Shown here in pieces: positions 3,187-56,567 of a stretch of DNA of 64,000 nt. The stretch lies in the NCBI GenBank assembly GCA_965262115.1, contig OZ253496.1, positions 1,408,001 through 1,472,000 of the forward strand, written 5' to 3'. The notes under the pieces were generated by a model, which saw nothing but the letters and a program-made list of their open reading frames with translations, was not told the DNA's origin and made no database searches. The translations under genes were made by a program, and so were the position numbers. The stretch is from Nitrospinales bacterium (GTDB lineage Bacteria > Nitrospinota > Nitrospinia > Nitrospinales > VA-1). Each line of letters opens with the position of its first letter. Position 1 is the stretch's first letter.

Positions 3187-3367
3187 GAAACCTTTGCATA
3201 ACCTGAGATTCTCATTGATCCTCCCCTCTCATGAGGGGAGGCAAGGCGTAGCCGCGGAGGGGTGTGGATTATTTTTACGGAATTCATAATCCAACCCTCC
3301 CCTGGCCCCTCCCTATGAAGGGAGGGGAAATTTCTGCTTCCGCATTTTCTACTTACGCAAAGGTCTC
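3187..3367 (+). mobile_element. MITE-like palindromic repeat with 15-bp terminal inverted repeats
   Basis: Ends GAAACCTTTGCATAA / TTACGCAAAGGTCTC. The hairpin core (CCTCCCCTCTCATGAGGGGAGG...CCCTCCCTATGAAGGGAGGGG) recurs near 19377, 26778, 31099 and 36928. Confidence 0.7.
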
Positions 3368-4250: not shown

Positions 4251-5446
4251 TGAAATTTTCCGAACGTATTCAAAATGTAAATCCATCCATGACATTGGCC
4301 ATCGATGCCAAAGCCCGGGAAATGCAAGCCCGGGGCGAGGATGTCATCGGTTTCGGGGCTGGCGAACCCGATTTTAATACCCCGGAGCACATCAAGCAGG
4401 CCGGCATCCGGGCGATAGAAAATAACGAAACCCGTTACACCTCGGTCGGTGGCAGTGATATTCTAAAAGAAGCCATCATCACAAAACTGCAACACGACAA
4501 CGGACTGGTCTATGAAAAAAACCAGATTCTCGCTTCCTGTGGAGCCAAGCATTCCTTTTACAACCTGGCCCAGGTGCTTTGGCAGGCAGGAGATGAAGTC
4601 ATCATCCCGGCACCTTACTGGGTCTCGTTTCCCGACATAGTGATCCTGTCGGGAGCCCGCCCCCTCATCGTCCACACCGGGCAGGATTTCAAAATCACCG
4701 CCGAACAAATTGAAAATTCCGTCACTCCTAACACCAGAGCCATCGTGCTCAATTCGCCTTCCAATCCGACCGGCTCCGCCTACAACAAAGATGAACTGGA
4801 AAAACTGGCCGAGTGCGCGTTAAAGCACAAGCTGTTGATCCTCTCAGATGAAATTTATGAGCAGATCGTGTTCGATGGATTCCAACACATAAGCATTGCC
4901 TCTTTAAGCAAGGAAGTGCAAAAACAATGTGTGGTGATTAATGGGGTTTCTAAAAGCTACGCCATGACAGGCTGGAGGATCGGCTATATCGCGGTGGGAG
5001 ATCCCGAGATTGTCAAACAGGTCGCCAAACTGCAGGGACAAAGCACGTCCAATCCCTGCTCGGTATCGCAGGCGGCCAGCATCGAAGCCCTGAACGGTCC
5101 GCTCGACAAAATTTATGCCATGGTGGATGAATTTGAAAAACGCCGGGACATCCTCGTCAATCTCTTAAACCAGATTGACGGGGTCACCTGCAAAAAACCA
5201 CACGGCTCGTTCTACACCTTTCCGGATTTTTCCGGCGTCTATGGCAAAAAGGATATGAATGGGAAAGCGCTGGAGGGGTCGTTGGATTTTACCGATTATC
5301 TGCTATCGACCGAGAAGGTTGCCATCGTGCCCGGAATTGCGTTCGGAGCCGATAACCACGCACGTTTGTCTTTTGCCACATCGCTGGAAAACATTGAGGC
5401 GGGTGTCCAACGAATAAAAAATGCCATTTCCAAACTCCACCACTAA
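4250..5446 (+). CDS. aspC: Aspartate aminotransferase (class I/II PLP-dependent)
   Basis: GAGEPDF, NSPSNPTG, SDEIY, SKSYAMTGWRIG. Confidence 0.9.
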   Translation: MKFSERIQNVNPSMTLAIDAKAREMQARGEDVIGFGAGEPDFNTPEHIKQAGIRAIENNETRYTSVGGSDILKEAIITKLQHDNGLVYEKNQILASCGAKHSFYNLAQVLWQAGDEVIIPAPYWVSFPDIVILSGARPLIVHTGQDFKITAEQIENSVTPNTRAIVLNSPSNPTGSAYNKDELEKLAECALKHKLLILSDEIYEQIVFDGFQHISIASLSKEVQKQCVVINGVSKSYAMTGWRIGYIAVGDPEIVKQVAKLQGQSTSNPCSVSQAASIEALNGPLDKIYAMVDEFEKRRDILVNLLNQIDGVTCKKPHGSFYTFPDFSGVYGKKDMNGKALEGSLDFTDYLLSTEKVAIVPGIAFGADNHARLSFATSLENIEAGVQRIKNAISKLHH

Positions 5447-5570
5447 GCGTGGGGCCAAGTAGCTGTGATACCCTCTTCCACAAACTTCATGTCCCGCAGG
5501 GGTAAATGGCTTTATTGGGCTGGAAAAGATTTGTCTCGGCTTATAAGAGGTTTGCCCCCTCTTTTTAAAG

Positions 5571-5963
5571 TACCCGTGCCGGGCATGAATGCAATTGAAG
5601 AGATATCACAAGGGTCGGGGTGATTTGCAGGGGTCTGCATTGCCCATCATTGTGAGGAACCAACGGTCTAGATGGCCGCGCTCCTTTTACCCCTTCTACC
5701 CGTTCCGGGCATGAATTTAGCGAAGAGGATATCACAGGCTCATGAAGGCAAATGAAGAATTTCACACAGTCGCTCGCGATGACGACCAGATGGGGTAACT
5801 CACATGCTGAGCTAGTCGAAAGCTCGAAGGCCCCTGCTATTTCCCTCCTGCGGAAGTGAACGGCTTGACGGATTCTTGCACTATATACCCCTCCTACCCC
5901 TGCGGGGCATGAAACAAGTGAAGAAATATCACAGGCTCACGAAAGCTAAGGAATAATATCACG
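5571..5963 (+). repeat. Cluster of TACCC...ATCAC micro-elements (5571-5610, 5697-5766, 5895-5963) nested in other palindromic repeats
   Basis: For example TACCCGTGCCGGGCATGAATGCAATTGAAGAGATATCACA. Confidence 0.8.
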
Positions 5964-5987
5964 CCCACCTACGAGAGTGGGAAAGGG

Positions 5988-6418: not shown

Positions 6419-7948
6419 TTGGTGAAAAACCTAATTCTTAAAGAACCGCGCCCACTTCTACTCTCCGCTTTGAGCGGGATTCTTCTGGTGTTGATCTTCC
6501 CGCGTTTTAATTTTGAAGTTCTTGCCTGGTTCGCCTTTATCCCTCTTTTTTCAGCGATTGAGACCAAAACCCCTCAACGTTCCGCGTTGTTGGGATTCAT
6601 CACCGGCATGGTTTTTTATGCCTGGGGTTTGAGCTGGGTCAACAACACTCTCATCAACTACGGCAACCTTCCCCAAATCGTGAGTTTCATGGTTTTAGGG
6701 CTTTTAGCCGCCTATCTCTCTTTCTATACGGCACTCTTTTGCTATCTGATAAGGAGGGTCTGCAAAGATAATCGGGGACTGCTTTTCCTGTTCGCGCCGG
6801 TTCTGTGGACATCTTTCGAGTACCTCCGCTCGACCCACTCCGAATACGGGTTTTCCTGGTTAGGACTTGGCTATTCCCAATTCCAAACCCTGCCGGTCAT
6901 TCAGATGGCCGAGATCACCGGTGTGTATGGCATCTCGTGGCTCATCATGCTGGTCAATGTCGGACTCTATCTGGCCTGGAAGTCATGGGGCAATATGGGA
7001 GCACGGTTTTTATCGGTCACGATTCTTGTTCTGGCGCTATGGGTAGGGTTAGGCATCATTGCCCTGAACCGCGCGGTCAATGGCCCCAGCCTGACGGTGG
7101 GATTGATTCAAGGCAATGTCGAGCAGGCCATGAAATGGAATCCGGTTTACCAGAAGGTGGTCATGGCCAAATACCGAGACCTGACTCTCAAGGCGGCGCA
7201 ATCAAATCCGCAATTGATCGTATGGCCGGAAACCGCCACACCTTTTTTCTACTCCCAGCACGCACCCGGCACCCAGTTTGTGAACGACCTGGCGCGGCAA
7301 ACCGAAATCCCCATTCTATTCGGCAGTCCCTACAAAGAAAACAGCATCCACTACAACAGCGCCTACCTGGTAACTGAATCAGGTGTCCCGCAAAACCGTT
7401 ACGACAAAATCCATCTGGTTCCTTTTGGCGAGTTCGTTCCCTTCCGGAAAATATTATTCTTCGTGGAAAAAATGGTGGAGATGATCGGCAACTTCGGCCG
7501 CGGTGAGGAAGCGATAGTGTTCGATGTGGCAGGACACAAGGCCGGGGTCTCAATCTGTTATGAAATAATCTTCCCCGACCTGATACGGCAGGCGGTTAAA
7601 AATGGCGCCGATTTTTTAATCAATATCACCAACGATGCCTGGTTTGGCAAAAGTGCGGCGAGCTACCAGCATATGAGCATGGGAGCACTAAGGGCGGTGG
7701 AAAACCGCATCCCCATCGTGCGTGCGGCGAATACCGGGATCTCCGGAGCCATCACGGCTAGCGGCGCCCTTCAAGATGAAACAGAACTTTTTGTCGAAGC
7801 CGCCAAGATCACCAAAATCACCCCGCGCCAAGGCAGACTCACCTTCTACAGCACCTATGGCGATGTGTTCAGCTGGCTGTGCCTGGGGCTGACCTTTCTT
7901 CTGCCATTTTTGCAAAGAAAAGAACTGACCGGTAATCACTCGCAGTGA
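6419..7948 (+). CDS. lnt: Apolipoprotein N-acyltransferase
   Basis: N-terminal TM segments, WPETA, YDKIHLVPFGE, ICYEI, TNDAWFG, RAANTGIS. Confidence 0.96.
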   Translation: MVKNLILKEPRPLLLSALSGILLVLIFPRFNFEVLAWFAFIPLFSAIETKTPQRSALLGFITGMVFYAWGLSWVNNTLINYGNLPQIVSFMVLGLLAAYLSFYTALFCYLIRRVCKDNRGLLFLFAPVLWTSFEYLRSTHSEYGFSWLGLGYSQFQTLPVIQMAEITGVYGISWLIMLVNVGLYLAWKSWGNMGARFLSVTILVLALWVGLGIIALNRAVNGPSLTVGLIQGNVEQAMKWNPVYQKVVMAKYRDLTLKAAQSNPQLIVWPETATPFFYSQHAPGTQFVNDLARQTEIPILFGSPYKENSIHYNSAYLVTESGVPQNRYDKIHLVPFGEFVPFRKILFFVEKMVEMIGNFGRGEEAIVFDVAGHKAGVSICYEIIFPDLIRQAVKNGADFLINITNDAWFGKSAASYQHMSMGALRAVENRIPIVRAANTGISGAITASGALQDETELFVEAAKITKITPRQGRLTFYSTYGDVFSWLCLGLTFLLPFLQRKELTGNHSQ

Positions 7949-7992
7949 AAAACCCTAGAAGTCAATCACCCCAACCCTATTCGAAAAGGGTA

Positions 7993-8358
7993 TTAACTAT
8001 CATTCAGGTAAGCTTGTACTAGAGCTTGGAGTTTCTGAGGGGTTTCTTCTGAATCTAATGCGCCTTGCTGTATTCTCTTCAAAAGCCCATCTGAAACATA
8101 ACCAACAACAAAATCACCTTTCAATACCCGGTCTAATGTTTGCTCTGGGTAGGCATGACCTTCTGCGTAATAAATGACTGATTTATGTTTAATAAAGTCA
8201 TGCTCTCCTGCTTCAATTATGCATGCTTTGTCAGAATCATCTTTGTAGGTAGTAACATTAAAACATACTACATCCTTATTCGCACTTTTAGAAACAACTA
8301 CCCATAAATGACTAAGTCTATCACCAGAAAGACTCCGAAAAGTTTGTCCCACATCCAT
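7993..8358 (-). CDS. Hypothetical protein, putative toxin partner of the Panacea antitoxin
   Basis: TAATG overlap with the upstream DUF4065-like gene; low GC. Confidence 0.55.
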   Translation of the reverse strand: MDVGQTFRSLSGDRLSHLWVVVSKSANKDVVCFNVTTYKDDSDKACIIEAGEHDFIKHKSVIYYAEGHAYPEQTLDRVLKGDFVVGYVSDGLLKRIQQGALDSEETPQKLQALVQAYLNDS

Positions 8359-8909
8359 TATTTTTTCATGCAATATTCAAAGTTGAATATTTCTTCAGCT
8401 TCTTCGGACATACGATCTATAGTCTCTTGAGAAACACCTTCGGCCTTTAAAATTTCTTCAGGATTAATCACGCGACTCGACCCCCCAGGATATCTCCACT
8501 CCGGCAAATCATGAGTTAACGTAATTAGGTCATGTCGGCTCTTATGCCCATGCTCTGTAAATATCTTTTCTAAAACCTTAAGCTCATACTTAGATAACTC
8601 GTCTGTTTCTGGATTCTCTTTGGCTAAAGACACATTATAATTATCCGCTTCTGTCACGTATTCATACCAGTCTTTAGTTTCTTCTGATATTTCACCCTGA
8701 AATCTATTCAAAATTACAGAAAGGATGGGTCCTTGCCTCATAGAGTACATAGTATCTCTAGTAATAGGTCGGCCCTTTTCTATTAAAGATTGTCTGTCTG
8801 CCAAATAAAGTAATTTCAATAGGGCTTGGTAATTAAATACCCCGCCTTTTTTTTGAATGAACCAAGCCGTTGTTTGAGCCGCCTTTCTTTCATTGAATGT
8901 AAAATGCAT
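8358..8909 (-). CDS. Panacea (DUF4065/SocA/GepA-like) antitoxin
   Basis: LLKLLYLADR...GRPIT...GP...LTHDLPEW signature. Confidence 0.8.
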   Translation of the reverse strand: MHFTFNERKAAQTTAWFIQKKGGVFNYQALLKLLYLADRQSLIEKGRPITRDTMYSMRQGPILSVILNRFQGEISEETKDWYEYVTEADNYNVSLAKENPETDELSKYELKVLEKIFTEHGHKSRHDLITLTHDLPEWRYPGGSSRVINPEEILKAEGVSQETIDRMSEEAEEIFNFEYCMKK

Positions 8910-9995: not shown

Positions 9996-10039
9996 TACCC
10001 CTTGTATGTTGTTCATAAGGGGAATTTGTAGTAGTTGTA

Positions 10040-11174
<1,135 letters not shown>

Positions 11175-11191
11175 CATTTAACACAGTTGCT

Positions 11192-11303
11192 TCGGGGCAT
11201 GAGATACCCGTGCCGGGCATGAAGGCAAAGGTAAAATATCACATACCCGTGCCGGGCATGAATTTTAAGGAAGAGGACATCACAGCTATGAAAGAATATC
11301 ACG
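11192..11303 (+). repeat. Nested micro-elements: two units (11205-11243, 11244-11284) inside the element that IS110 interrupted
   Basis: Removing IS110 and both inner units leaves the 39-bp TACCCCTTCGGGGCATGAGAGCTATGAAAGAATATCACG. Confidence 0.75.
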
Positions 11304-19356: not shown

Positions 19357-19661
19357 TTACCCTTGCGGGGCACGAATTGATCTTCCCCTCTCATGAGGGG
19401 AGGCAAGGCGTAGCCGCGGAGGGGTGTGGATTATTTTTACGGAATTCATAATCCAACCCTCCCCTGGCCCCTCCCTATGAAGGGAGGGGGGATTTCTGCT
19501 TCCGCCTTTCTCAAAGTACCCCTGCGGGGCATGAAGGCAAAGGTAAAATATCACGTCTTCATCGCGTGCGCTCTTCAGAATGACAAATAGCCTTGTATTG
19601 TCATTCTGAACGCAGTGAAGAATCTCGCTTTTCTGTTTTTTTCGACTTATGCAAAGGTCTC
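19357..19661 (+). repeat. Composite repeat: MITE core, micro-element (19517-19555), GTCATTCTGA-type palindrome and MITE end
   Basis: Near-identical to the 3187 core; ends TTATGCAAAGGTCTC. Confidence 0.8.
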
Positions 19662-23354: not shown

Positions 23355-23494
23355 GAAGTATTCCTATTCGAGTATGTTGAAAAAGGACTCAATATACCAC
23401 AGAACTCGCCGACCTAACAAACATAAAATACATAAAATCAATAAGTTATAGGATTACCGGAACGTGGAGTGCCTCCCTCGTGTGAAATTTTTCC

Positions 23495-26400
23495 TTAGTT
23501 TTCATGCCTCGGAGGGGTATTAGAGGGGGTGTGGAACCACTTATATAAGGTGGGCAGGACCACCAGTGTCAACGCGGTCGAGGAGAGGATGCCGCCGATC
23601 ACCACCGTTGCCAGCGGACGTTGCACTTCGGCGCCGGTTCCCGTTGCCAGAGCCATGGGGATGAATCCCAACGAAGCGACCAGTGCCGTCATCAAAACCG
23701 GACGAAGACGCGTGAGTGACCCTTGTCGAATGGCATCATCCAGGGGAACCCCCTGGTCGCGCAGGTTGCCGATGAACGAAATCATCATCATACCGTTCAG
23801 CACCGCGACTCCCGACAGAGCAATAAAGCCCACCGCCGCCGAAATCGATAAGGGAATTCCCCGCAGCCATAGGGAGAGGAATCCGCCAGTGAGCGCCAGG
23901 GGCACTCCGGTAAAAACCAGCAGAGCGTTGGCGTTGGAACCGAACGCCGCAAACAGTAATAAGTAAATCAGCACAAGGGTCAGGGGAATCACCACCCACA
24001 ATCTTTGCGCTGCGGAAATCAGGTGCTCGAACTGACCTCCCCACTCGATCCAATAACCCGGCTCGGCTTTGAGGTTAAGGGCGCTTTGTGCCTCTGCAAC
24101 AAAAGAACCCAGGTCGCGGCCCCTTACATTAGCGGTCACCACCACACGGCGCTTGGCGTTTTCGCGGCTGATCTGATTCGGCCCCTTGATAACTTTAAAT
24201 TCCGCGATCGTTCCGAGTGGTATGAATTTGGGGAAATGTGAACTCGTCCCCGAATGCGCTTCTTCGTCCTGAGCTAACAGGATGGTAATCTCTTTGAGCA
24301 AATCCATATTTTCGCGGATGTCTTCCGGCAAGCGCACGATGAGGTCAGACCTTTGGTCTCCTTCAAAAACCTGTCCGGCCTTTTTTCCTCCAATGGCGAT
24401 TTGGACGACTTCCTGAACATCGGCGGCGTTGATCCCCAACCGGGCCATTGCAGGGCGGTCCATCTCTACCGTAAGAACCGGGAGTCCGGTCACCTGTTCG
24501 ACTTTCACATCGGACGCGCCGGGGATATCAGCCAGAACATGTTCGACCTCATAGGCCAGGACCAGCAGCTTGTCCAGATCATCGCCAAAAATTTTAACCG
24601 CCACATCACTGCGCACGCCCGAAATCAATTCATTAAACCGCATCTCAATCGGCTGGGTGATTTCATATTTGTTACCGGGCACTTCGGCCAACTTCTTTTC
24701 CAGATCCCGCACCAGAGCTGATTTTTCTCTTGTGGGGTCACTCCATTCAGAACGGGGTTTCACTATCACAAACACATCGGCCACACTGGGTGGCATCGGG
24801 TCGGTGGCAATGTCCGCCGTGCCGATCTTCGCAAAAACATAATCCACTTCCGGCAGTTCTTTTATTTTTTTCTCCAGCGTGTCCTGCATGGAAACGGCTT
24901 GAGAAATACTGGTACCGGGAACCCGAAGGGCGTGAACGGCGAAATCCCCTTCATCCAGAGTCGGGAGAAACTCGCTGCCCAATTTCTGGATCAATAAAAT
25001 ACTGAGCACAACCAGAACCCCGGCAAAGGCGATCACCGAGGCGCGATTCCTGGCGGTGACGTCCAGCAGGAAAGAATAAAACCGGTCCGCGCCTTTTAAA
25101 ATGATGCTCTCCTTTTCAGAGATGGAAGAAGATGCAAACTGAGCCATCATCGCCGGAACAAAAGTGATCGAAAGAATCAATGCTCCGGCAAGAGCCATCA
25201 ACACGGTGAAAGCCATGGGCTGAAACATTTTGCCTTCGATTCCAGTCAGGGTGAGTATGGGCAGATAAACGATCATGATGATGAACACCCCGAAGATGCT
25301 GGGGCGGGAAACTTCGCAGGCAGAACTTTGCACAATGTCAAAGCGTTCCTGCTGATTTAATATTCGCCCCAACTGTTTTTGTTTCTCGGTAAGGCGGCGA
25401 CTGCAGTTTTCCACAATGATCACCGCACCATCGACGATGATGCCAAAATCAATAGCGCCCAGGCTCAACAGGTTGCCACTGACCCGGTTGCTCACCATCC
25501 CCGTTACCGCAAACAACATGGAAAGGGGAATCACCAGCGCCGTGATCACCGCCGCGCGGAAATTGCCCAGCAACAAAAATAAAACGGCGACAACCAGAAG
25601 CGCTCCTTCCAGAAGGTTGTCACGGACGGTTTTGAGAGTGGCGTTAACCAGATGGGTACGGTCATAAACGGTTTGTGCCACCACGCCTTCGGGCAAAGTC
25701 TGGTTGATCAATTTCATTTTCTCGGCAACCCTTAATGAAACCGTTCTACTGTTTTCTCCCTTAAGCATGAACACAGTACCCAGCACCACTTCCCAGCCAT
25801 TTTTGGTTGCGGCTCCCGTCCTCAACTCCTTGCCCAGGTCCACGTCTGCCACATCCTTAATATAAACAGGAACCCCTTGATGGGAACCGATGACAATATT
25901 TCTAATATCCTCCAGGCCCGATACCTGACCGGGGGTTCGCACAAGGTATTGCTGACCGCTATGCTCAATATAACCCGCACCAGTGTTTTGGTTGTTTCTG
26001 CTCAAAGCTTCGATGACATCTCTGAACGAAAAACCATAGGCGATCAGTTTTTGCGGGTCGGGCGACACCTGAAAATTTTTGACATATCCGCCGATGCTGT
26101 TGACCTCCGTCACCCCGGGAATGTTCATCAGTTGCGGCTTGATGATCCAGTCCTGAATGGTTCTCAGCTCAGAAGATGAATAGGGTTTGCGATTTTGGTC
26201 TTCGGCTTCCACCGACCACATGAAGATTTCCCCCAGTCCGGTAGCGATCGGACCCATAACCGGTTCCACGTTTTCAGGCAGGTGGCTTTTCACTTCCTGA
26301 ATTTTGGAATTGATCAATTGCCGGGCGAAAAATATATCTGTTCCATCCTCAAAAATCACCGTGACCTGGGAAAGGCCGTAGCGGGACAGCGAACGGGTGC

Positions 26401-26641
26401 GCTTCAATCGGGGCATGCCCGCCAGAGTGGTTTCAATCGGGAAGGTGATGCGCTGTTCGACTTCCAGCGGCGTGAAGCCCGGGGCCTCGGTATTGATCTG
26501 CACCTGAATATTGGTGACATCGGGAACCGCGTCAATAGGAAGGATTGTAAAATTATACCCACCCAGCGCGATGAGGGCCAAAGCCCCGGCAATCACAAAA
26601 AATCTTTGCCGAATGGAAAATGCGATAATTTTTTCTAACAT
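23495..26641 (-). CDS. czcA: Heavy-metal RND efflux permease, CzcA/CusA family
   Basis: LPIDAVPDVTNIQVQINT, GAIDFGIIVDG, RLRPVLMTALVASLGF. Confidence 0.95.
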   Translation of the reverse strand: MLEKIIAFSIRQRFFVIAGALALIALGGYNFTILPIDAVPDVTNIQVQINTEAPGFTPLEVEQRITFPIETTLAGMPRLKRTRSLSRYGLSQVTVIFEDGTDIFFARQLINSKIQEVKSHLPENVEPVMGPIATGLGEIFMWSVEAEDQNRKPYSSSELRTIQDWIIKPQLMNIPGVTEVNSIGGYVKNFQVSPDPQKLIAYGFSFRDVIEALSRNNQNTGAGYIEHSGQQYLVRTPGQVSGLEDIRNIVIGSHQGVPVYIKDVADVDLGKELRTGAATKNGWEVVLGTVFMLKGENSRTVSLRVAEKMKLINQTLPEGVVAQTVYDRTHLVNATLKTVRDNLLEGALLVVAVLFLLLGNFRAAVITALVIPLSMLFAVTGMVSNRVSGNLLSLGAIDFGIIVDGAVIIVENCSRRLTEKQKQLGRILNQQERFDIVQSSACEVSRPSIFGVFIIMIVYLPILTLTGIEGKMFQPMAFTVLMALAGALILSITFVPAMMAQFASSSISEKESIILKGADRFYSFLLDVTARNRASVIAFAGVLVVLSILLIQKLGSEFLPTLDEGDFAVHALRVPGTSISQAVSMQDTLEKKIKELPEVDYVFAKIGTADIATDPMPPSVADVFVIVKPRSEWSDPTREKSALVRDLEKKLAEVPGNKYEITQPIEMRFNELISGVRSDVAVKIFGDDLDKLLVLAYEVEHVLADIPGASDVKVEQVTGLPVLTVEMDRPAMARLGINAADVQEVVQIAIGGKKAGQVFEGDQRSDLIVRLPEDIRENMDLLKEITILLAQDEEAHSGTSSHFPKFIPLGTIAEFKVIKGPNQISRENAKRRVVVTANVRGRDLGSFVAEAQSALNLKAEPGYWIEWGGQFEHLISAAQRLWVVIPLTLVLIYLLLFAAFGSNANALLVFTGVPLALTGGFLSLWLRGIPLSISAAVGFIALSGVAVLNGMMMISFIGNLRDQGVPLDDAIRQGSLTRLRPVLMTALVASLGFIPMALATGTGAEVQRPLATVVIGGILSSTALTLVVLPTLYKWFHTPSNTPPRHEN

Positions 26642-26696
26642 ATTTTTTTCCCTGATTCACATATTACATATGAGGTTGTAAATCCCCCCAGCCCCT

Positions 26697-27075
26697 CGTG
26701 ATATTTTACCTTTGCCTTCATGCCCGGCACGGGTATGTGATATTTTACCTTTGCCTTCATGCCCGGCACGGGTACTTTAAGAAAGGCGGAAGCAGAAATC
26801 CCCCCTCCCTTCATAGGGAGGGGCCAGGGGAGGGTTGGATTATGAATTCTGTCAAAAACAATCCACACCCCTCCGCGGCTACGCCTTGCCTCCCCTCATG
26901 AGAGGGGAGGATCAATGAGAATCTCGGATTACGCAAAGGTCCCTTTTGAGAAAAAGGGGGACAACCTGAAACCTTCTGGTTGTAAATCCCCCCAGCCCCT
27001 CGTGATATTGTTCCAAAGCCCTCGTGCGGGGCATGGAGGCTGATGTTAAATACCACAGGGGTCGGGGGGATTTGC
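26697..27075 (-). repeat. Two tandem 39-bp micro-elements (26697-26735, 26736-26774), MITE (to 26943) and a degenerate element (27001-27057) between czcB and czcA
   Basis: TACCCGTGCCGGGCATGAAGGCAAAGGTAAAATATCAC twice on the minus strand. Confidence 0.85.
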
Positions 27076-27081
27076 TTTTCC

Positions 27082-28839
27082 CTAGTGGCTGTGGGTGGCG
27101 CCAGACTTTTCAATCTCGGCCTTCACCGCATAACTGTTTTTTGCCACATACTGTTCTCCGGCTTTCAAACCCTGCAGAACTTCCACCCGGCTACCATCGT
27201 TTTCTCCAAGCTCCAGAGGCCGTGCTTCCAGTTGAGATCCGTATTTGACAAAGACCACCGACCAGTAGCGGAAACTTTGAATGGCATCCGGTTCCACCAC
27301 CACAGGAACCCTGCGTTCGTCGAGGACCAGTTTCACCGTGACATAACCGCCGGGACGCAAATCGCGCTTCATATTGGGAATCACGACACGCCCTGTCGCC
27401 GTTCGCGTTTTTTCATCAATGATCGAACTGAGATAAGACAATTTCGCCTGCAGGGTCTTGGGTCCCTCCTCAAAGATCACTTTTTGCCCGAGGCGAACTT
27501 TTTTGAGTTCCTTTTCCGGAATGGCAAAATTCACCCAGACCTCTGAAAGATCGGCCAGGAGAAAAATGTCATCATCCTTTTTGACCGCCTCTCCGGTGGT
27601 TAGATGTTTCTGGATCACCGTACCGTCTAAAGTAGCGCGCAGTTCATACCGGGTGAAATGCTGTTCATCCTGTTCCAGCAAATAATCCACTTCCTCCGGG
27701 GCCAGTCCCAATGCCAGCAGTTTTTGGTTGGCGGTTTTCAGATTAAGCTGGTCGATCTCCAGAGTTTTTTTCTTTTGCCGGAGAGACCACGCGCCATCGT
27801 AGGAAATTTTTTCACGCAAAGCGATATAACGAGCCTCGGTGCTTTTGTAATTTTCCAAAGCGACTAAATATTCCGATTCGGATGAGATGCCCTTTTCCAG
27901 CAATCCTTTTTCACGCAGGTGAATGGACTTTGCCAGCTGTAATTTGGCAGAGGCGGGAATGAGCAGTTCGCGGCTTTTTCCGATCACCAGGTCTTTAAGC
28001 TGACGATAAATTTCTTCCGGGTCCAAATCCTGCTCAAGCAGATCCAGCATGCGCTGGGTGTTTTCGAAGACCTGTGTTTCCCGGTCCAGGTCTGCCCTCG
28101 CCATGCCAGCCTGCTTGGTGTTGGTCAGGTAATCGATCTTCGCGTCGGCCAGTTCCCGGCTTTCCAGTATGGCGATGACCTCACCACGGGAAACCTGATC
28201 TCCCAAATCTTTAAATACTTTTTTAACCACTCCATCAACCCTTGGAACGATGTGGACCACCTTTTCCTCGTTGAGTCCGATCTCGCCCGGCAAACGTATC
28301 GTTGTCACCAGTTTTTCCGGCCCGGCTTTTTTAAAAACCAGTCCCGCGTTTTGAATCGCCTCTGGGGAAAATTCTGCCCGGCCTTCAATTTGAGAAAGTT
28401 GCCACTGAAAGTTTTGCCCTTTCCATTTTGCGTTGACAATCATTTCAAAAGAATGCGGCTCGGCAACCACCTGGTCTCCCAGCAAATAATCTCCCGAAGG
28501 TTTAAAGCCAATGGTGTCGGTCCTATCCAACCTCTTTAAAACGATATTCAAATTAATCTCGTTAAGGTTGACAGGTTCACTAGAAGTTATATAGACCCTG
28601 AATTGTGGCGGAATACCGTCTTCAAAAATTTTTACCTCCACCTGAAAATCCTGTTCGGCAAACAACCAACCGCCGTGTTTTCCCCTTTGAACAGAGGGAT
28701 CACCATTCTTACCCTGAGCGTGCGATGAGTCCGGCTCATCAAGCCCGGGCTTTGCCTTATCCATATTTAAAATGCCCCAGGCCAGAACCGCTCCTACAAC
28801 CAGAATGGCAATAGCGCCGAAAGAAATCTTTCTGTTCAT
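27082..28839 (-). CDS. czcB: RND periplasmic adaptor, CzcB/CusB family
   Basis: HIVPRVDGVV, LADLSEVWV, TRTATGRV; between czcC and czcA. Confidence 0.9.
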   Translation of the reverse strand: MNRKISFGAIAILVVGAVLAWGILNMDKAKPGLDEPDSSHAQGKNGDPSVQRGKHGGWLFAEQDFQVEVKIFEDGIPPQFRVYITSSEPVNLNEINLNIVLKRLDRTDTIGFKPSGDYLLGDQVVAEPHSFEMIVNAKWKGQNFQWQLSQIEGRAEFSPEAIQNAGLVFKKAGPEKLVTTIRLPGEIGLNEEKVVHIVPRVDGVVKKVFKDLGDQVSRGEVIAILESRELADAKIDYLTNTKQAGMARADLDRETQVFENTQRMLDLLEQDLDPEEIYRQLKDLVIGKSRELLIPASAKLQLAKSIHLREKGLLEKGISSESEYLVALENYKSTEARYIALREKISYDGAWSLRQKKKTLEIDQLNLKTANQKLLALGLAPEEVDYLLEQDEQHFTRYELRATLDGTVIQKHLTTGEAVKKDDDIFLLADLSEVWVNFAIPEKELKKVRLGQKVIFEEGPKTLQAKLSYLSSIIDEKTRTATGRVVIPNMKRDLRPGGYVTVKLVLDERRVPVVVEPDAIQSFRYWSVVFVKYGSQLEARPLELGENDGSRVEVLQGLKAGEQYVAKNSYAVKAEIEKSGATHSH

Positions 28840-30999: not shown

Positions 31000-31264
31000 G
31001 GTGATATTCTTCCCCGGCTGTGATGTCCTCTTCCCTAAACTTTATGCCCGGTACGGGTATGTGATATTTCACCTTTGCCTTCATGCCCGGTACGGGTACT
31101 TTAAGAAAGGCGGAAGCAGAAATTCCCCCTCCCTTTATAGGGAGGGGCCAGGGGAGGGTTGGATTATGAATTCCGTAAAAATAATACACCCCTCCGCGGC
31201 TACGCCTTGCCTCCCCTCATGAGAGGGGAGGATCAATGAGAATCTCAGGTTATGCAAAGCTCTC
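31000..31264 (-). repeat. MITE plus tandem micro-elements (31019-31059, 31060-31098)
   Basis: Same architecture as 26697-26943. Confidence 0.85.
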
Positions 31265-31306
31265 CTTATCAGGGGGAAGTTTTTTGCCCCCGGCGGCTCG
31301 CCGGCC

Positions 31307-36927: not shown

Positions 36928-37243
36928 GAGACCTTTGCATAACCTGAGATTCTCATTGATCCTCCCCTCTCATGAGGGGAGGCAAGGCGTAGCCGCGGAG
37001 GGGTGTATTATTTTTACGGAATTTATAATCCAACCCTCCCCTGGCCCCTCCCTATGAAGGGAGGGGGATTTCTGCTTCCGCCTTTTTCAGAGAGGGTCGG
37101 GGTGATTTACCACCAGAAGGTTTCAGGTTGTCCCCCTCTTTCTCAAAGAGAGACCTTTGCATAACCTGAGATTACCCCTGCGGGGCATGAAGTTTATGGA
37201 TGTGGATATAACAGGCTCATGAAGGTTTTGGTAAGTCATCACA
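36928..37243 (+). repeat. MITE copy, a second MITE end and a double micro-element (37173-37243)
   Basis: GAGACCTTTGCATAACCTGAGAT at 36928 and about 37150. Confidence 0.8.
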
Positions 37244-48126: not shown

Positions 48127-48185
48127 AAAACATTCTCCAAATCACTAAATAAAAAAACTTCTTCCAATAAAAAACCATGGCCCGG

Positions 48186-48308
48186 TCGTCATTGCGAGGA
48201 GCCAAAGGCGACGACGCAATCCAAGAATACCCTTGCAGGGCATGAAGGCTAATGAGGAAATATCACAAACCTGGATCGCCGCGCTCCTTACAGTCGCTCG
48301 CGATGACG
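48186..48308 (+). repeat. GTCATTGCGAG...CTCGCGATGAC palindrome carrying a micro-element (48228-48267)
   Basis: TACCCTTGCAGGGCATGAAGGCTAATGAGGAAATATCACA in the loop. Confidence 0.75.
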
Positions 48309-53801: not shown

Positions 53802-54027
53802 GAGAGCTTTGCATAAGTCGAAAAACCTGAAAAGCGAGATGCTTCGACATACCCCTACGGGGCAAGAATTCAAAGGTCAAATATCACTAGCTCAGCATGA
53901 CAATACTGGGGCATTTTGTCATTCTGAGGAACAAGGTGACGAAGATGTGATATTTGTGATGGCCTCTTCCTTAAACTTCATGCCCGGAACGGGTAGAAGG
54001 GGTAATCTCGGGTTATGCAAAGGTCTC
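53802..54027. mobile_element. MITE with TIRs, carrying a REP-like palindrome and micro-elements (53850-53888 +, 53946-54004 -)
   Basis: GAGAGCTTTGCATAA...TTATGCAAAGGTCTC. Confidence 0.7.

Positions 54028-54088: not shown

Positions 54089-56567
<2,479 letters not shown>

Follow-up and report, generated by a model that had tools for sequence, protein, structure and literature searches.

Genus-restricted repeats of about 40 bp, inserted exactly and without target-site duplication, in Nitrospina-type genomes

The closest described counterparts of the element reported here are the small dispersed repeats (SDRs) of Nostocaceae, along with REP elements. SDR1-8 of Nostoc punctiforme and relatives, reportedly described by Elhai et al. 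in 2008 (Genome Res 18:1484), are 21-27 nt long. SDRs form a small hairpin with compensatory changes, are nested in their own copies and in other small repeats, belong to one clade, and no transposase is known for them. We analysed a stretch of 64,000 nucleotides from a Nitrospinales bacterium (the window, C1:1408001-1472000 of genome G000, which is one contig of 2,684,264 bases with 46.8% G+C; relatives' genomes are denoted G031, G013, G007 etc.), in which an initial annotation had pointed out a recurrent unit of about 40 nt. This unit matches in kind the 'very small mobile repeated elements' (SDRs) of Nostocaceae and, more loosely, the repetitive extragenic palindromes (REPs). It is shorter than 100 nt, dispersed, self-nesting and clade-restricted, with a compensated hairpin; this is a likeness of kind, in the general features of SDRs. 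The unit differs from SDRs in its length (about 40 nt vs 21-27 nt) and phylum, and in having asymmetric fixed ends (TACCC...CACN), a GNA-type triloop, and use as a target by an IS110-family element.

Other small elements are similar in part. Palindrome-associated elements (PATEs) derived from IS200/IS605 are inserted exactly without target-site duplication (TSD) or terminal inverted repeats (TIRs), have two subterminal hairpins, and have a fixed tetra- or pentanucleotide to their left. Going by these general features, the unit has in common with PATEs the exact insertion without TSD or TIRs and a hairpin near one end, but it has one hairpin instead of two, no conserved left tetra- or pentanucleotide and no strand bias, and there is no TnpA in G000. 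An origin as a miniature IS200/IS605 derivative was rejected on the left flank (≤0.23 bit), the single hairpin and the balance of strands (156 vs 162). The 20-bp palindrome dRS3 of Neisseria flanks variable segments, and both dRS3 and the Neisseria intergenic mosaic elements (NIMEs) are targeted by IS110/Piv-like recombinases. The units also form intergenic mosaics of short repeats that are landing sites of DEDD-type recombinases, but each is an asymmetric 40-mer inserted whole, in contrast to the palindromic dRS3.

REPs are said, following Tobes & Pareja in 2006, to be natural targets of IS110-family elements. REPs and REPINs are mobilised by the REP-associated tyrosine transposase (RAYT), a Y1 HUH enzyme (Bertels & Rainey 2011, PMC3116915; Di Nocera et al. 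2013, PMC3733652), and Durrant et al. 2024 (PMC11208160) is cited for IS110-family elements targeting REPs. The unit is REP-like in being short, intergenic and present in hundreds of copies, in having a hairpin rich in G+C but neither TSD nor TIRs, and in being the target of an IS110-family element. It differs in that the hairpin takes up 11 of 40 nt, the unit starts TA-CCC, and copies are mostly single, in direct tandem or nested (only 2 of 15 nested in an inverted host) with no downstream-of-gene bias. Membership in the RAYT-type REP/REPIN class was rejected because RAYT is found in neither G000 nor its unit-richest relatives, there is no GTAG or CGTC tag, and inverted dimers do not predominate.

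A 40-nt repeat family with fixed ends

A search of the window with the pattern TACCCSNNNSGGGCATGAA, allowing up to 2 mismatches, gave 17 matches against 0.12 expected, a number reached in 0 of 100 shuffles. The initial annotation had proposed a family of about 15 copies, and all 15 positions that it named contain a unit, those at 26697, 26736, 31019, 31060, 53955 and 54429 lying on the minus strand. Three more copies were found, two on the minus strand (5464-5504 and 23481-23519) and one consisting of the 5' half only (19358-19376). As a regular expression over G000, TACCCSNNNSGGGCATGAA gave 305 matches. An nhmmer profile of 39 positions, built from 120 seed copies and applied with a cut-off of E ≤0.01, gave 318 matches (162 on the plus and 156 on the minus strand), 189 of which are full-length units. 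Rfam, at gathering score, had 0 matches in the window, and no description of the family was found in the literature on Nitrospina repeats, supplementary files being outside the scope of that search.

The unit is 39-41 nt long, starts with TACCC and finishes with CAC[A/G/T]. Its 5' part consists of TA and a 4-bp stem, CCC(C/G)...(G/C)GGG, that encloses a 3-nt loop. On the 3' side of the stem are CA(T/C/A)GAA, about 13 divergent purine-rich bases, and ATATCAC plus one base, which among 67 flank-cluster representatives is A 42 times, G 23 times and T twice. The middle segment had been described as variable and purine-rich; it is indeed purine-rich, but not freely variable, with a loose consensus of about nnnAAnGAAGAnnA and subfamilies.

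Among the 257 units with an aligned 5' end, 252 start with TA-CCC, the preceding base being variable. Loop position 1 is T in 255 and loop position 3 is C in 240, with a free middle base, and this T-N-C loop reads G-N-A on the complementary strand. GNA triloops are a motif of unusually stable DNA mini-hairpins. The pair that closes the loop is C-G in 157 units, G-C in 78, C-C in 6 and G-G in 0, and all four stem pairs are standard in 230 of the 257. Pairing is limited to positions 3-13, giving a single hairpin of 11 of the 40 nt.

For an exact empty-site test, the two 14-base flanks of a unit were joined and matched elsewhere in G000, which succeeded for 43 of the 189 full units. Ungapped alignment, with mismatches allowed and at least 12 nt per side, gave empty sites for 147 of the 318 units, and a 40-nt insert fits 119 of these 147. 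Over about 88 flank classes, the inserts start with TACCC and end with CAC[A/G/T]. The clearest junction, GAGATGCTTCGACA/TACCCC...ATCACT/AGCTCAGCATGAC (slashes mark the insertion points), fits a single pair of boundaries and has no repeated bases; the empty form GAGATGCTTCGACA/AGCTCAGCATGAC occurs exactly (14+14) 18 times in the genome, as expected from the claim that removal of 53850-53888 restores its host. The same claim for 5571-5610 held as well, the right flank AGGGTCGGGGTGATTT at 5611 being equal to the uninterrupted copy at 37094-37109, with left flanks that are alike, not identical (CTTTTTAAAG vs CTTTTTCAGAG). The boundaries can slide by at least 1 nt in 61 of the 147 cases. Chance identity of one flanking base is estimated at about 44%, so this sliding is near the chance level and there is no excess of junction microhomology.

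An orthologous comparison gave a clean 39-nt filled/empty pair, in which G031 reads ...AAGAATC/TACCCC...ATCACG/TGCACGCTGG... and G000 is empty, ...AAGAATT/TGCACGCTGG..., within otherwise collinear flanks. Together with the 147 paralogous empty sites, the nested and tandem copies described below and the lack of an Rfam match, this pair upholds the description of an ultra-short non-autonomous element that is inserted exactly without TSD. The absence of TIRs and TSD was also confirmed, as TACCC is not the inverted form of ATCACN and the junctions have no duplicated bases. For lack of both features, the unit was rejected as a miniature inverted-repeat element of a DDE transposon.

The 40-mer could instead be immobile by itself, an optional module of larger composite repeats whose empty forms arose by deletion or by conversion from a paralogue. 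Identical units mostly have common flanks (e.g. one set of 15 copies is spread over 2 contexts, and three sets of 6, 4 and 4 copies have a single context apiece), which means that larger repeats and an IS3 element carrying the unit account for much of the copy number. Likewise, a 129-nt composite including a unit is present in G031 and missing from G000 as one block, and every IS3 copy is filled (15 of 15). However, the 189 full units fall into 67 distinct flank clusters; their hosts are unrelated, comprising the IS3 reading frame, several palindromic repeats, the interiors of other units, and unique DNA beside terminator-like hairpins; and the 39-nt pair lies between collinear orthologous flanks. 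An exact 40-nt deletion without flanking direct repeats would itself require an enzyme. We consider an immobile module improbable.

The flanks of the 67 clusters contain little sequence information. On the left, A and T are favoured at -3 to -1 and no position exceeds 0.23 bit, and the right flank has a weak preference for C or G at +2 (0.45 bit) and for C at +5 (0.59 bit), in line with the claim that there is no fixed target sequence. A bias toward hairpin repeats had also been claimed. The hosts are often other small repeats, several of them palindromic, so that a bias toward small repeats and toward the unit itself is supported; structural enrichment was not clear in minimum free energy (MFE) folding of 88 empty sites, where both bases at the junction were unpaired in 50% vs 39% at control positions. 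A structural target rule seen by eye, insertion on the 3' side of small hairpins, was dropped because no class was clearly enriched in this folding.

Units also insert into one another. Fifteen of the 189 full units are nested within another unit, 10 at host position 20/21 (right after CAYGAAR), 2 at position 30, 1 at position 9 (in the loop) and 2 at position 17 of an inverted host. A periodicity of about 10 nt in these sites is not claimed, with only 15 cases and 10 of them at position 20/21. A further 26 of the 189 are directly abutted by the next unit in the same orientation and without spacers, the longest tandem array having six copies. The nested inserts are mostly of the type with a G..C closing pair, their hosts mostly of the C..G type, and identical copies of the G..C subfamily are present in 2-4 different contexts. 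The G..C subfamily looks like the youngest, and self-targeting.

Distribution, turnover and candidate enzymes

The motif was found in 16 of 18 genomes of the same genus, with matches ranging from 0 (G009, G017) to 469 (G013). In other genera of the order, 4 of 12 genomes had a single match with 1 mismatch, and the reversed-pattern control gave 0-2. In a scan of public genomes, multi-copy matches among the loci listed occurred only under Nitrospina, Nitrospinaceae, Nitrospinales or Nitrospinota labels; 56 of the 80 listed loci were of Nitrospina type, and the other 24 labels appeared once each. The family is confined to a single genus.

G031 and G000 share about 145 kb of synteny, 93-96% identical, and the unit density is similar, 26 per 179 kb in G031 and 29 per 145 kb in G000. 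Of the 29 G000 units in the syntenic stretch, 13 could be anchored, and only 3 of the 13 have a unit at the G031 site. Four orthologous spacers differ between G000, G031, G013 and G007 in the units and other repeats that they contain. In a contig of sequencing run X5, from a strain about 95% alike, 228 other letters stand in place of window positions 5427-5985, a 557-nt spacer with four units. The few common positions, the differing spacers and the X5 replacement indicate that unit turnover is fast relative to about 5-7% divergence.

By a crude call of open reading frames (ORFs), 252 of the 318 units are intergenic: 65 between convergent, 47 between divergent and 140 between tandem genes. Convergent gene pairs are not enriched in units, and relative to co-directional neighbouring genes the units show no orientation bias (73 same, 67 opposite). 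No polarity at the level of RNA or of the replication strand is visible in the orientation counts. These data bear on the possibility that the unit is a motif with a host function (a protein-binding site, uptake signal or RNA element) under selection, its spread being secondary. Strong conservation of sequence and structure across the genus and the intergenic placement would suit such a role. The lack of a gene-orientation bias and of convergent-gene enrichment, a copy number of 0 to 469 within one genus, orthologous positions that are seldom common, and gain by exact 40-nt indels instead of point mutation all speak against it, and we regard it as highly unlikely.

The initial annotation had named an HUH/Y1 or RAYT transposase, a reverse transcriptase (RT) and an IS110-type recombinase as possible movers, and none of these proposals was borne out. 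The genomes of most relatives are in fragments, and repeats and mobile genes are poorly resolved in such assemblies; the following counts across the genus are subject to this limit. Y1 HUH (PF01797) had 0 matches in G000, with a control that was positive in 6 of 14 genomes. Seven of the 23 genus genomes have it, G013, G007 and G006 not among them, so that HUH/Y1 or RAYT is missing from the one-contig G000 and the unit-richest relatives and present in the unit-free G009. Y2_Tnp (PF04986) had no match in G000, and its control was likewise without a match in any genome. Tyrosine recombinases of PF00589 had 4 matches in G000 (two Xer-like by score, one 288-aa ORF and one fragment), and Cas1 had 3, with Cas1 in 7 of 23 genus genomes. 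No genes flanked by units in the manner of RAYT were found: the 10 genes that lie between units look like housekeeping genes, and none is nuclease- or recombinase-like by reading of its sequence. None of the four families Y1 HUH, RT, IS110 and Cas1 tracks the units across the genus.

Elhai et al. in 2008 reportedly proposed an RNA intermediate for cyanobacterial small dispersed repeats, and a unit copied back from RNA by an RT would accord with the SDR analogy in size, compensated hairpin, self-nesting and clade restriction. However, the RVT_1 matches in G000 are two fragments with stop codons, none was found in the unit-rich G007 and G031, and 8 of 23 genus genomes have RVT_1; the units show no preferred orientation with respect to neighbouring genes, and the conserved G-N-A loop reads on the strand opposite TACCC. 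An RNA intermediate is thus quite improbable. The RT fragments at G000:C1:50216-51029 contain an in-frame TGA and an in-frame TAG, and the gene is apparently broken.

A link to CRISPR was considered and rejected. An I-F-type array and another array have repeats unrelated to the unit. The unit itself is not a CRISPR repeat, since its tandem copies abut with no spacers between them and the CRISPR arrays found consist of unrelated repeats. A type I-C CRISPR-Cas locus (G000:C1:2120041-2127960) has a cas8c apparently split into several ORFs, two repeats and one spacer, and its repeat GTCGCCCCCCGTGCGGGGGCGTGGATTGAAAC (G000 2127853) is loosely like the 5' module of the unit, a hairpin and then G/CATGA-like bases. 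The link was rejected because G031 is close to G000 in unit density without that I-C Cas1.

Mode of movement

Our preferred, still tentative, reading is that these genus-restricted repeats of about 40 bp (318 copies), exactly inserted without TSD, are likely moved in trans by an enzyme that would recognise their ends and mini-hairpin, probably on single-stranded DNA. Constant ends over many unrelated targets, the lack of excess microhomology, and the conserved loop and closing pair point to a protein that recognises and exactly joins the unit, and the G-N-A loop suggests a single-stranded DNA form. A dedicated protein would cut and join the unit at its fixed ends TACCC...CACN, the strand with the G-N-A triloop may be the active single-stranded form, and the youngest subfamily, with the G..C closing pair, would prefer older units as targets, mostly right after CAYGAAR. 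The description is considerably firmer than the mechanism. Established are the family with its copy number and boundaries, the filled and empty alleles, the hairpin covariation, the clade restriction and the rapid turnover between species, as well as the passive amplification of many copies in larger repeats and IS3 and the targeting of the hairpin loop by an IS110-family element.

Several observations weigh against movement by a dedicated enzyme. The nearest-neighbour energy of the hairpin is -3.0 to -3.5 kcal/mol (z of -0.4 to +0.3 vs shuffles, on both strands), so it is energetically weak and the case for structure consists of covariation and loop conservation; the subfamilies are linked by descent, so that the covariation counts are not independent events. 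The TACCC strand has no replichore bias (156 leading, 162 lagging), and IS200/IS605-type single-strand transposition usually leaves a strand bias. The common flanks of identical copies and the four enzyme families that do not track the units, both described above, belong here as well. Finally, irregular forms exist, namely the 5' module alone, A-A-B and A-B-B arrangements, an extra TACCC, and repeated TACCCCTTC 9-mers; a strictly end-specific enzyme does not predict them, and later recombination or slippage is needed to account for them.

The same irregular forms, together with the tandem arrays of up to six copies, the units' mostly sitting in other repeats and the failure of the four searched enzyme families to track them, would be accommodated if no dedicated enzyme were involved and the units arose by template switching or break repair at small hairpins, followed by slippage and gene conversion. 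The copies at 26697-26774 are identical, and their G007 orthologues differ mutually, which looks like concerted evolution. Such a process would have to produce constant TACCC...CACN boundaries in about 88 flank classes with junction microhomology at about the chance level (61 of 147), and template switching does not demand conserved loop bases, closing pair and terminal bases. We judge it unlikely. For the enzyme-mediated reading in its most specific form, in which a lineage-specific or housekeeping enzyme outside the known transposase families would excise a 40-nt single strand with a GNA triloop and fixed ends and paste it in exactly, our confidence is also low.

Were it true, this would be a new kind of transposition, the unit would be among the smallest mobile DNAs, and it would provide a handle on the spread of REP- or SDR-like repeats without RAYT. 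How very small dispersed repeats spread without RAYT has been an open question since the descriptions of SDRs and CGTC-type REPs. The present lineage is an unusually clean case, with complete genomes containing 16 to 469 copies, exact filled and empty alleles at 93-96% identity, a visible structural constraint, and four obvious enzyme families that do not track the units.

Insertion sequences, composite repeats and the window

The hairpin loop of the unit is a natural target of an IS110-family insertion sequence (IS). This IS is 1,186-1,196 bp long, and G000 has 24 matches to its DEDD transposase. Of 25 pairs of left and right ends, 24 are flanked by ...CCCCTT/ and /CT(T/G)CGGGGCA..., corresponding to the unit hairpin loop with a CT core; the 25th pair lies within a partial IS copy. 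Both copies in the window (10004-11189 and 54465-55650) obey this rule. In several copies the two flanks come from different loci, which points to IS-mediated rearrangement.

In the predicted fold of the 5' untranslated region (UTR) of this IS, an internal loop reads GATCG-TTTACCCCTT-(GGGC...GCCC)-GTCCCGAAG-CGCAGATCG. Of its two sides, TTTACCCCTT and CCCGAAG, one is identical to the left target half and the other complementary to the right half, and the right IS end motif ACAGTTGC recurs farther along. Bridge-RNA elements have this layout, and the 5' UTR fits a putative bridge RNA with a target loop aimed at the unit. The likeness to IS621 and other bridge-RNA elements of the IS110 family (PMC11208160, PMC11208158) belongs to the IS inside the units, which has a CT core, no TSD and UTR loop guides (the RNA being predicted). 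The bridge-RNA description fits the exploiter and not the unit, and Rfam had no match to it in the window.

Another conceivable mover is an IS110-type recombinase guided by bridge RNA, with the unit travelling as a very small single-stranded circle. The 24 transposase matches in G000 make such an enzyme available, and according to the abstract of a 2026 preprint (10.64898/2026.08.31.748434) IS621 mainly excises a single-stranded circle and only donor-arm recognition is needed; a circle of 40 nt could exist only in single-stranded form. Yet the resident IS ends, TGTATG...ACAGTTG, are unlike those of the unit, and the UTR loop matches the unit as a target and not as a donor. IS110 is found in 6 of 23 genus genomes, not in the unit-bearing G006, G018 and G004, and in G013, with its 469 matches, there is just one truncated copy. 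No long element that ends like a unit, of the kind that the initial annotation had suggested looking for, was found at five IS110 loci in relatives. We consider this route very improbable.

All 15 IS3 copies found in G000 carry the unit directly after ...GCAGTTATCTT, downstream of the A AAA AAG slippery site; the IS3 is present in 15-17 near-identical copies, and in the window the relevant positions are 54154-54470 and 55651-55700. By reading of the codons, the unit would shift the frame relation of orfA and orfB from -1 to +1. The stretch at 54429-55658 had been read as a unit whose excision restores the end of orfA. It does hold one minus-strand unit, and its removal restores ATC TTC TCG AAG GGT TCC CAA TGA; the unit is, however, split by the 1,186-bp IS110-family IS at 54465-55650, as this IS lands in the unit hairpin loop, and with 15 of 15 copies filled there is no empty IS3 in the genome to prove the restoration. 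The result is a three-layer parasitism, in which an IS110-type element lands in the unit and the unit sits in every IS3 copy.

The units and associated features of the window are as follows.

5464..5504, minus strand: full-length unit (nhmmer 33.0 bits; motif match with 1 mismatch)
5571..5610, plus strand: unit in the palindrome CCCTCTTTTTAAAG/AGGG (motif, nhmmer; empty paralogue at 37081-37108)
5697..5736, plus strand: unit within the loop of a host unit that is older and degenerate, TACCCCTTC/.../GGCTCATGAAG... (nhmmer, empty-site match)
5737..5766, plus strand: 3' remainder of the degenerate host unit, GGCTCATGAAGGCAAATGAAGAATTTCAC (repeat family D8)
5895..5933, plus strand: unit, followed by a second degenerate host remainder at 5934-5963 (nhmmer, repeat families)
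9996..10003, plus strand: 5' part, TACCCCTT, of a unit split by IS110 (IS end flanks)
10004..11189, plus strand: IS110-family IS in a unit hairpin loop, transposase ORF 10234-11028 (transposase match, IS ends)
11190..11204, plus strand: 3' continuation of the split unit, CTTCGGGGCATGAGA, interrupted by the next two units (flank reading)
11205..11243, plus strand: nested unit, the first of two in tandem within a host unit (motif, nhmmer)
11244..11284, plus strand: unit, second of the tandem pair, with the host 3' module AGCTATGAAAGAATATCACG next (motif, nhmmer)
19358..19376, plus strand: 5' module only (hairpin and CACGAA), fused to a 134-nt repeat (motif, repeat families)
19517..19555, plus strand: unit (motif, nhmmer)
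23481..23519, minus strand: diverged unit, 20.3 bits; the orthologous spacer in three relatives has other repeats (motif, nhmmer)
26697..26774, minus strand: two identical tandem units, 26697-26735 and 26736-26774; the G007 orthologue has two different units (motif, nhmmer)
27019..27057, plus strand: degenerate unit, head to head with an inverted 3' module (repeat families)
31019..31098, minus strand: two tandem units, 31019-31059 and 31060-31098; the G007 site is without them, and G031 and G013 have a 32-nt relic (motif, nhmmer)
37081..37108, plus strand: empty palindromic target CTTTTTCAGAG/AGGGTCGGGGTGATTT (uninterrupted copy)
37173..37213, plus strand: unit, followed by a host remainder at 37214-37243; G031 is without 35 nt here (nhmmer, orthologue comparison)
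48228..48267, plus strand: unit central in a palindromic host of about 80 nt; present in G031, not in G007, G015 and others (nhmmer, orthologue comparison)
53850..53888, plus strand: unit (CAAGAA variant) in GAGATGCTTCGACA/AGCTCAGCATGAC (nhmmer; empty form 18 times)
53955..53995, minus strand: unit with the best score, 44.3 bits (nhmmer)
54429..54464, minus strand: 3' part of the unit located at the orfA/orfB overlap of IS3 (nhmmer, IS3 copies)
54465..55650, minus strand: IS110-family IS in the loop of that IS3 unit, ORF 54626-55420, 5' UTR about 55421-55650 (transposase match, UTR fold)
55651..55658, minus strand: 5' part, TACCCCTT, of the IS3-borne unit split by IS110 (IS end flanks)

Larger repeats accompany several of these units. 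The 134-nt repeat (TTGATCCTCCCCTCTCATGAGGGGAGG...GCCTTTCTCAAAG) adjoins units at 3214-3347, 19376-19509 and 36953-37086, and on the minus strand at 26790-26950 and 31110-31270. At 19358 it is fused to the 5' module of a unit after CACGAA, the same position at which whole units nest; the orphan 5' modules seen are either fused to a 134-nt repeat or interrupted by IS3 or IS110. A composite repeat (GCGAGATGCTTCGACAAGCTCAGCATGACAATA...GTCATTCTGAGGAACAAGGTGACGAAGA...ATCTCGGGTTATGCAAAGG), at 53826-54020 in the window, has about 40 copies in G000, with 0, 1 or 2 units at one site and the unit-free version 18 times. The palindromic repeat of about 80 nt (GTCATTGCGAGGAGCCAAAGGCGACGACGCAATCC...GGATCGCCGCGCTCCTTACAGTCGCTCGCGATGAC), at 48155-48305, has its unit in the centre, and other copies have a unit within the right arm instead (CTCCTTT/CAGTCGC).

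A practical effect of the units is that they break short-read assemblies of Nitrospina-type genomes and yield spurious small ORFs. Elsewhere in the genome, the region G000:C1:700-28300 contains several kilobase-long low-complexity tandem tracts, e.g. at 6563-8720 and 25699-28241.

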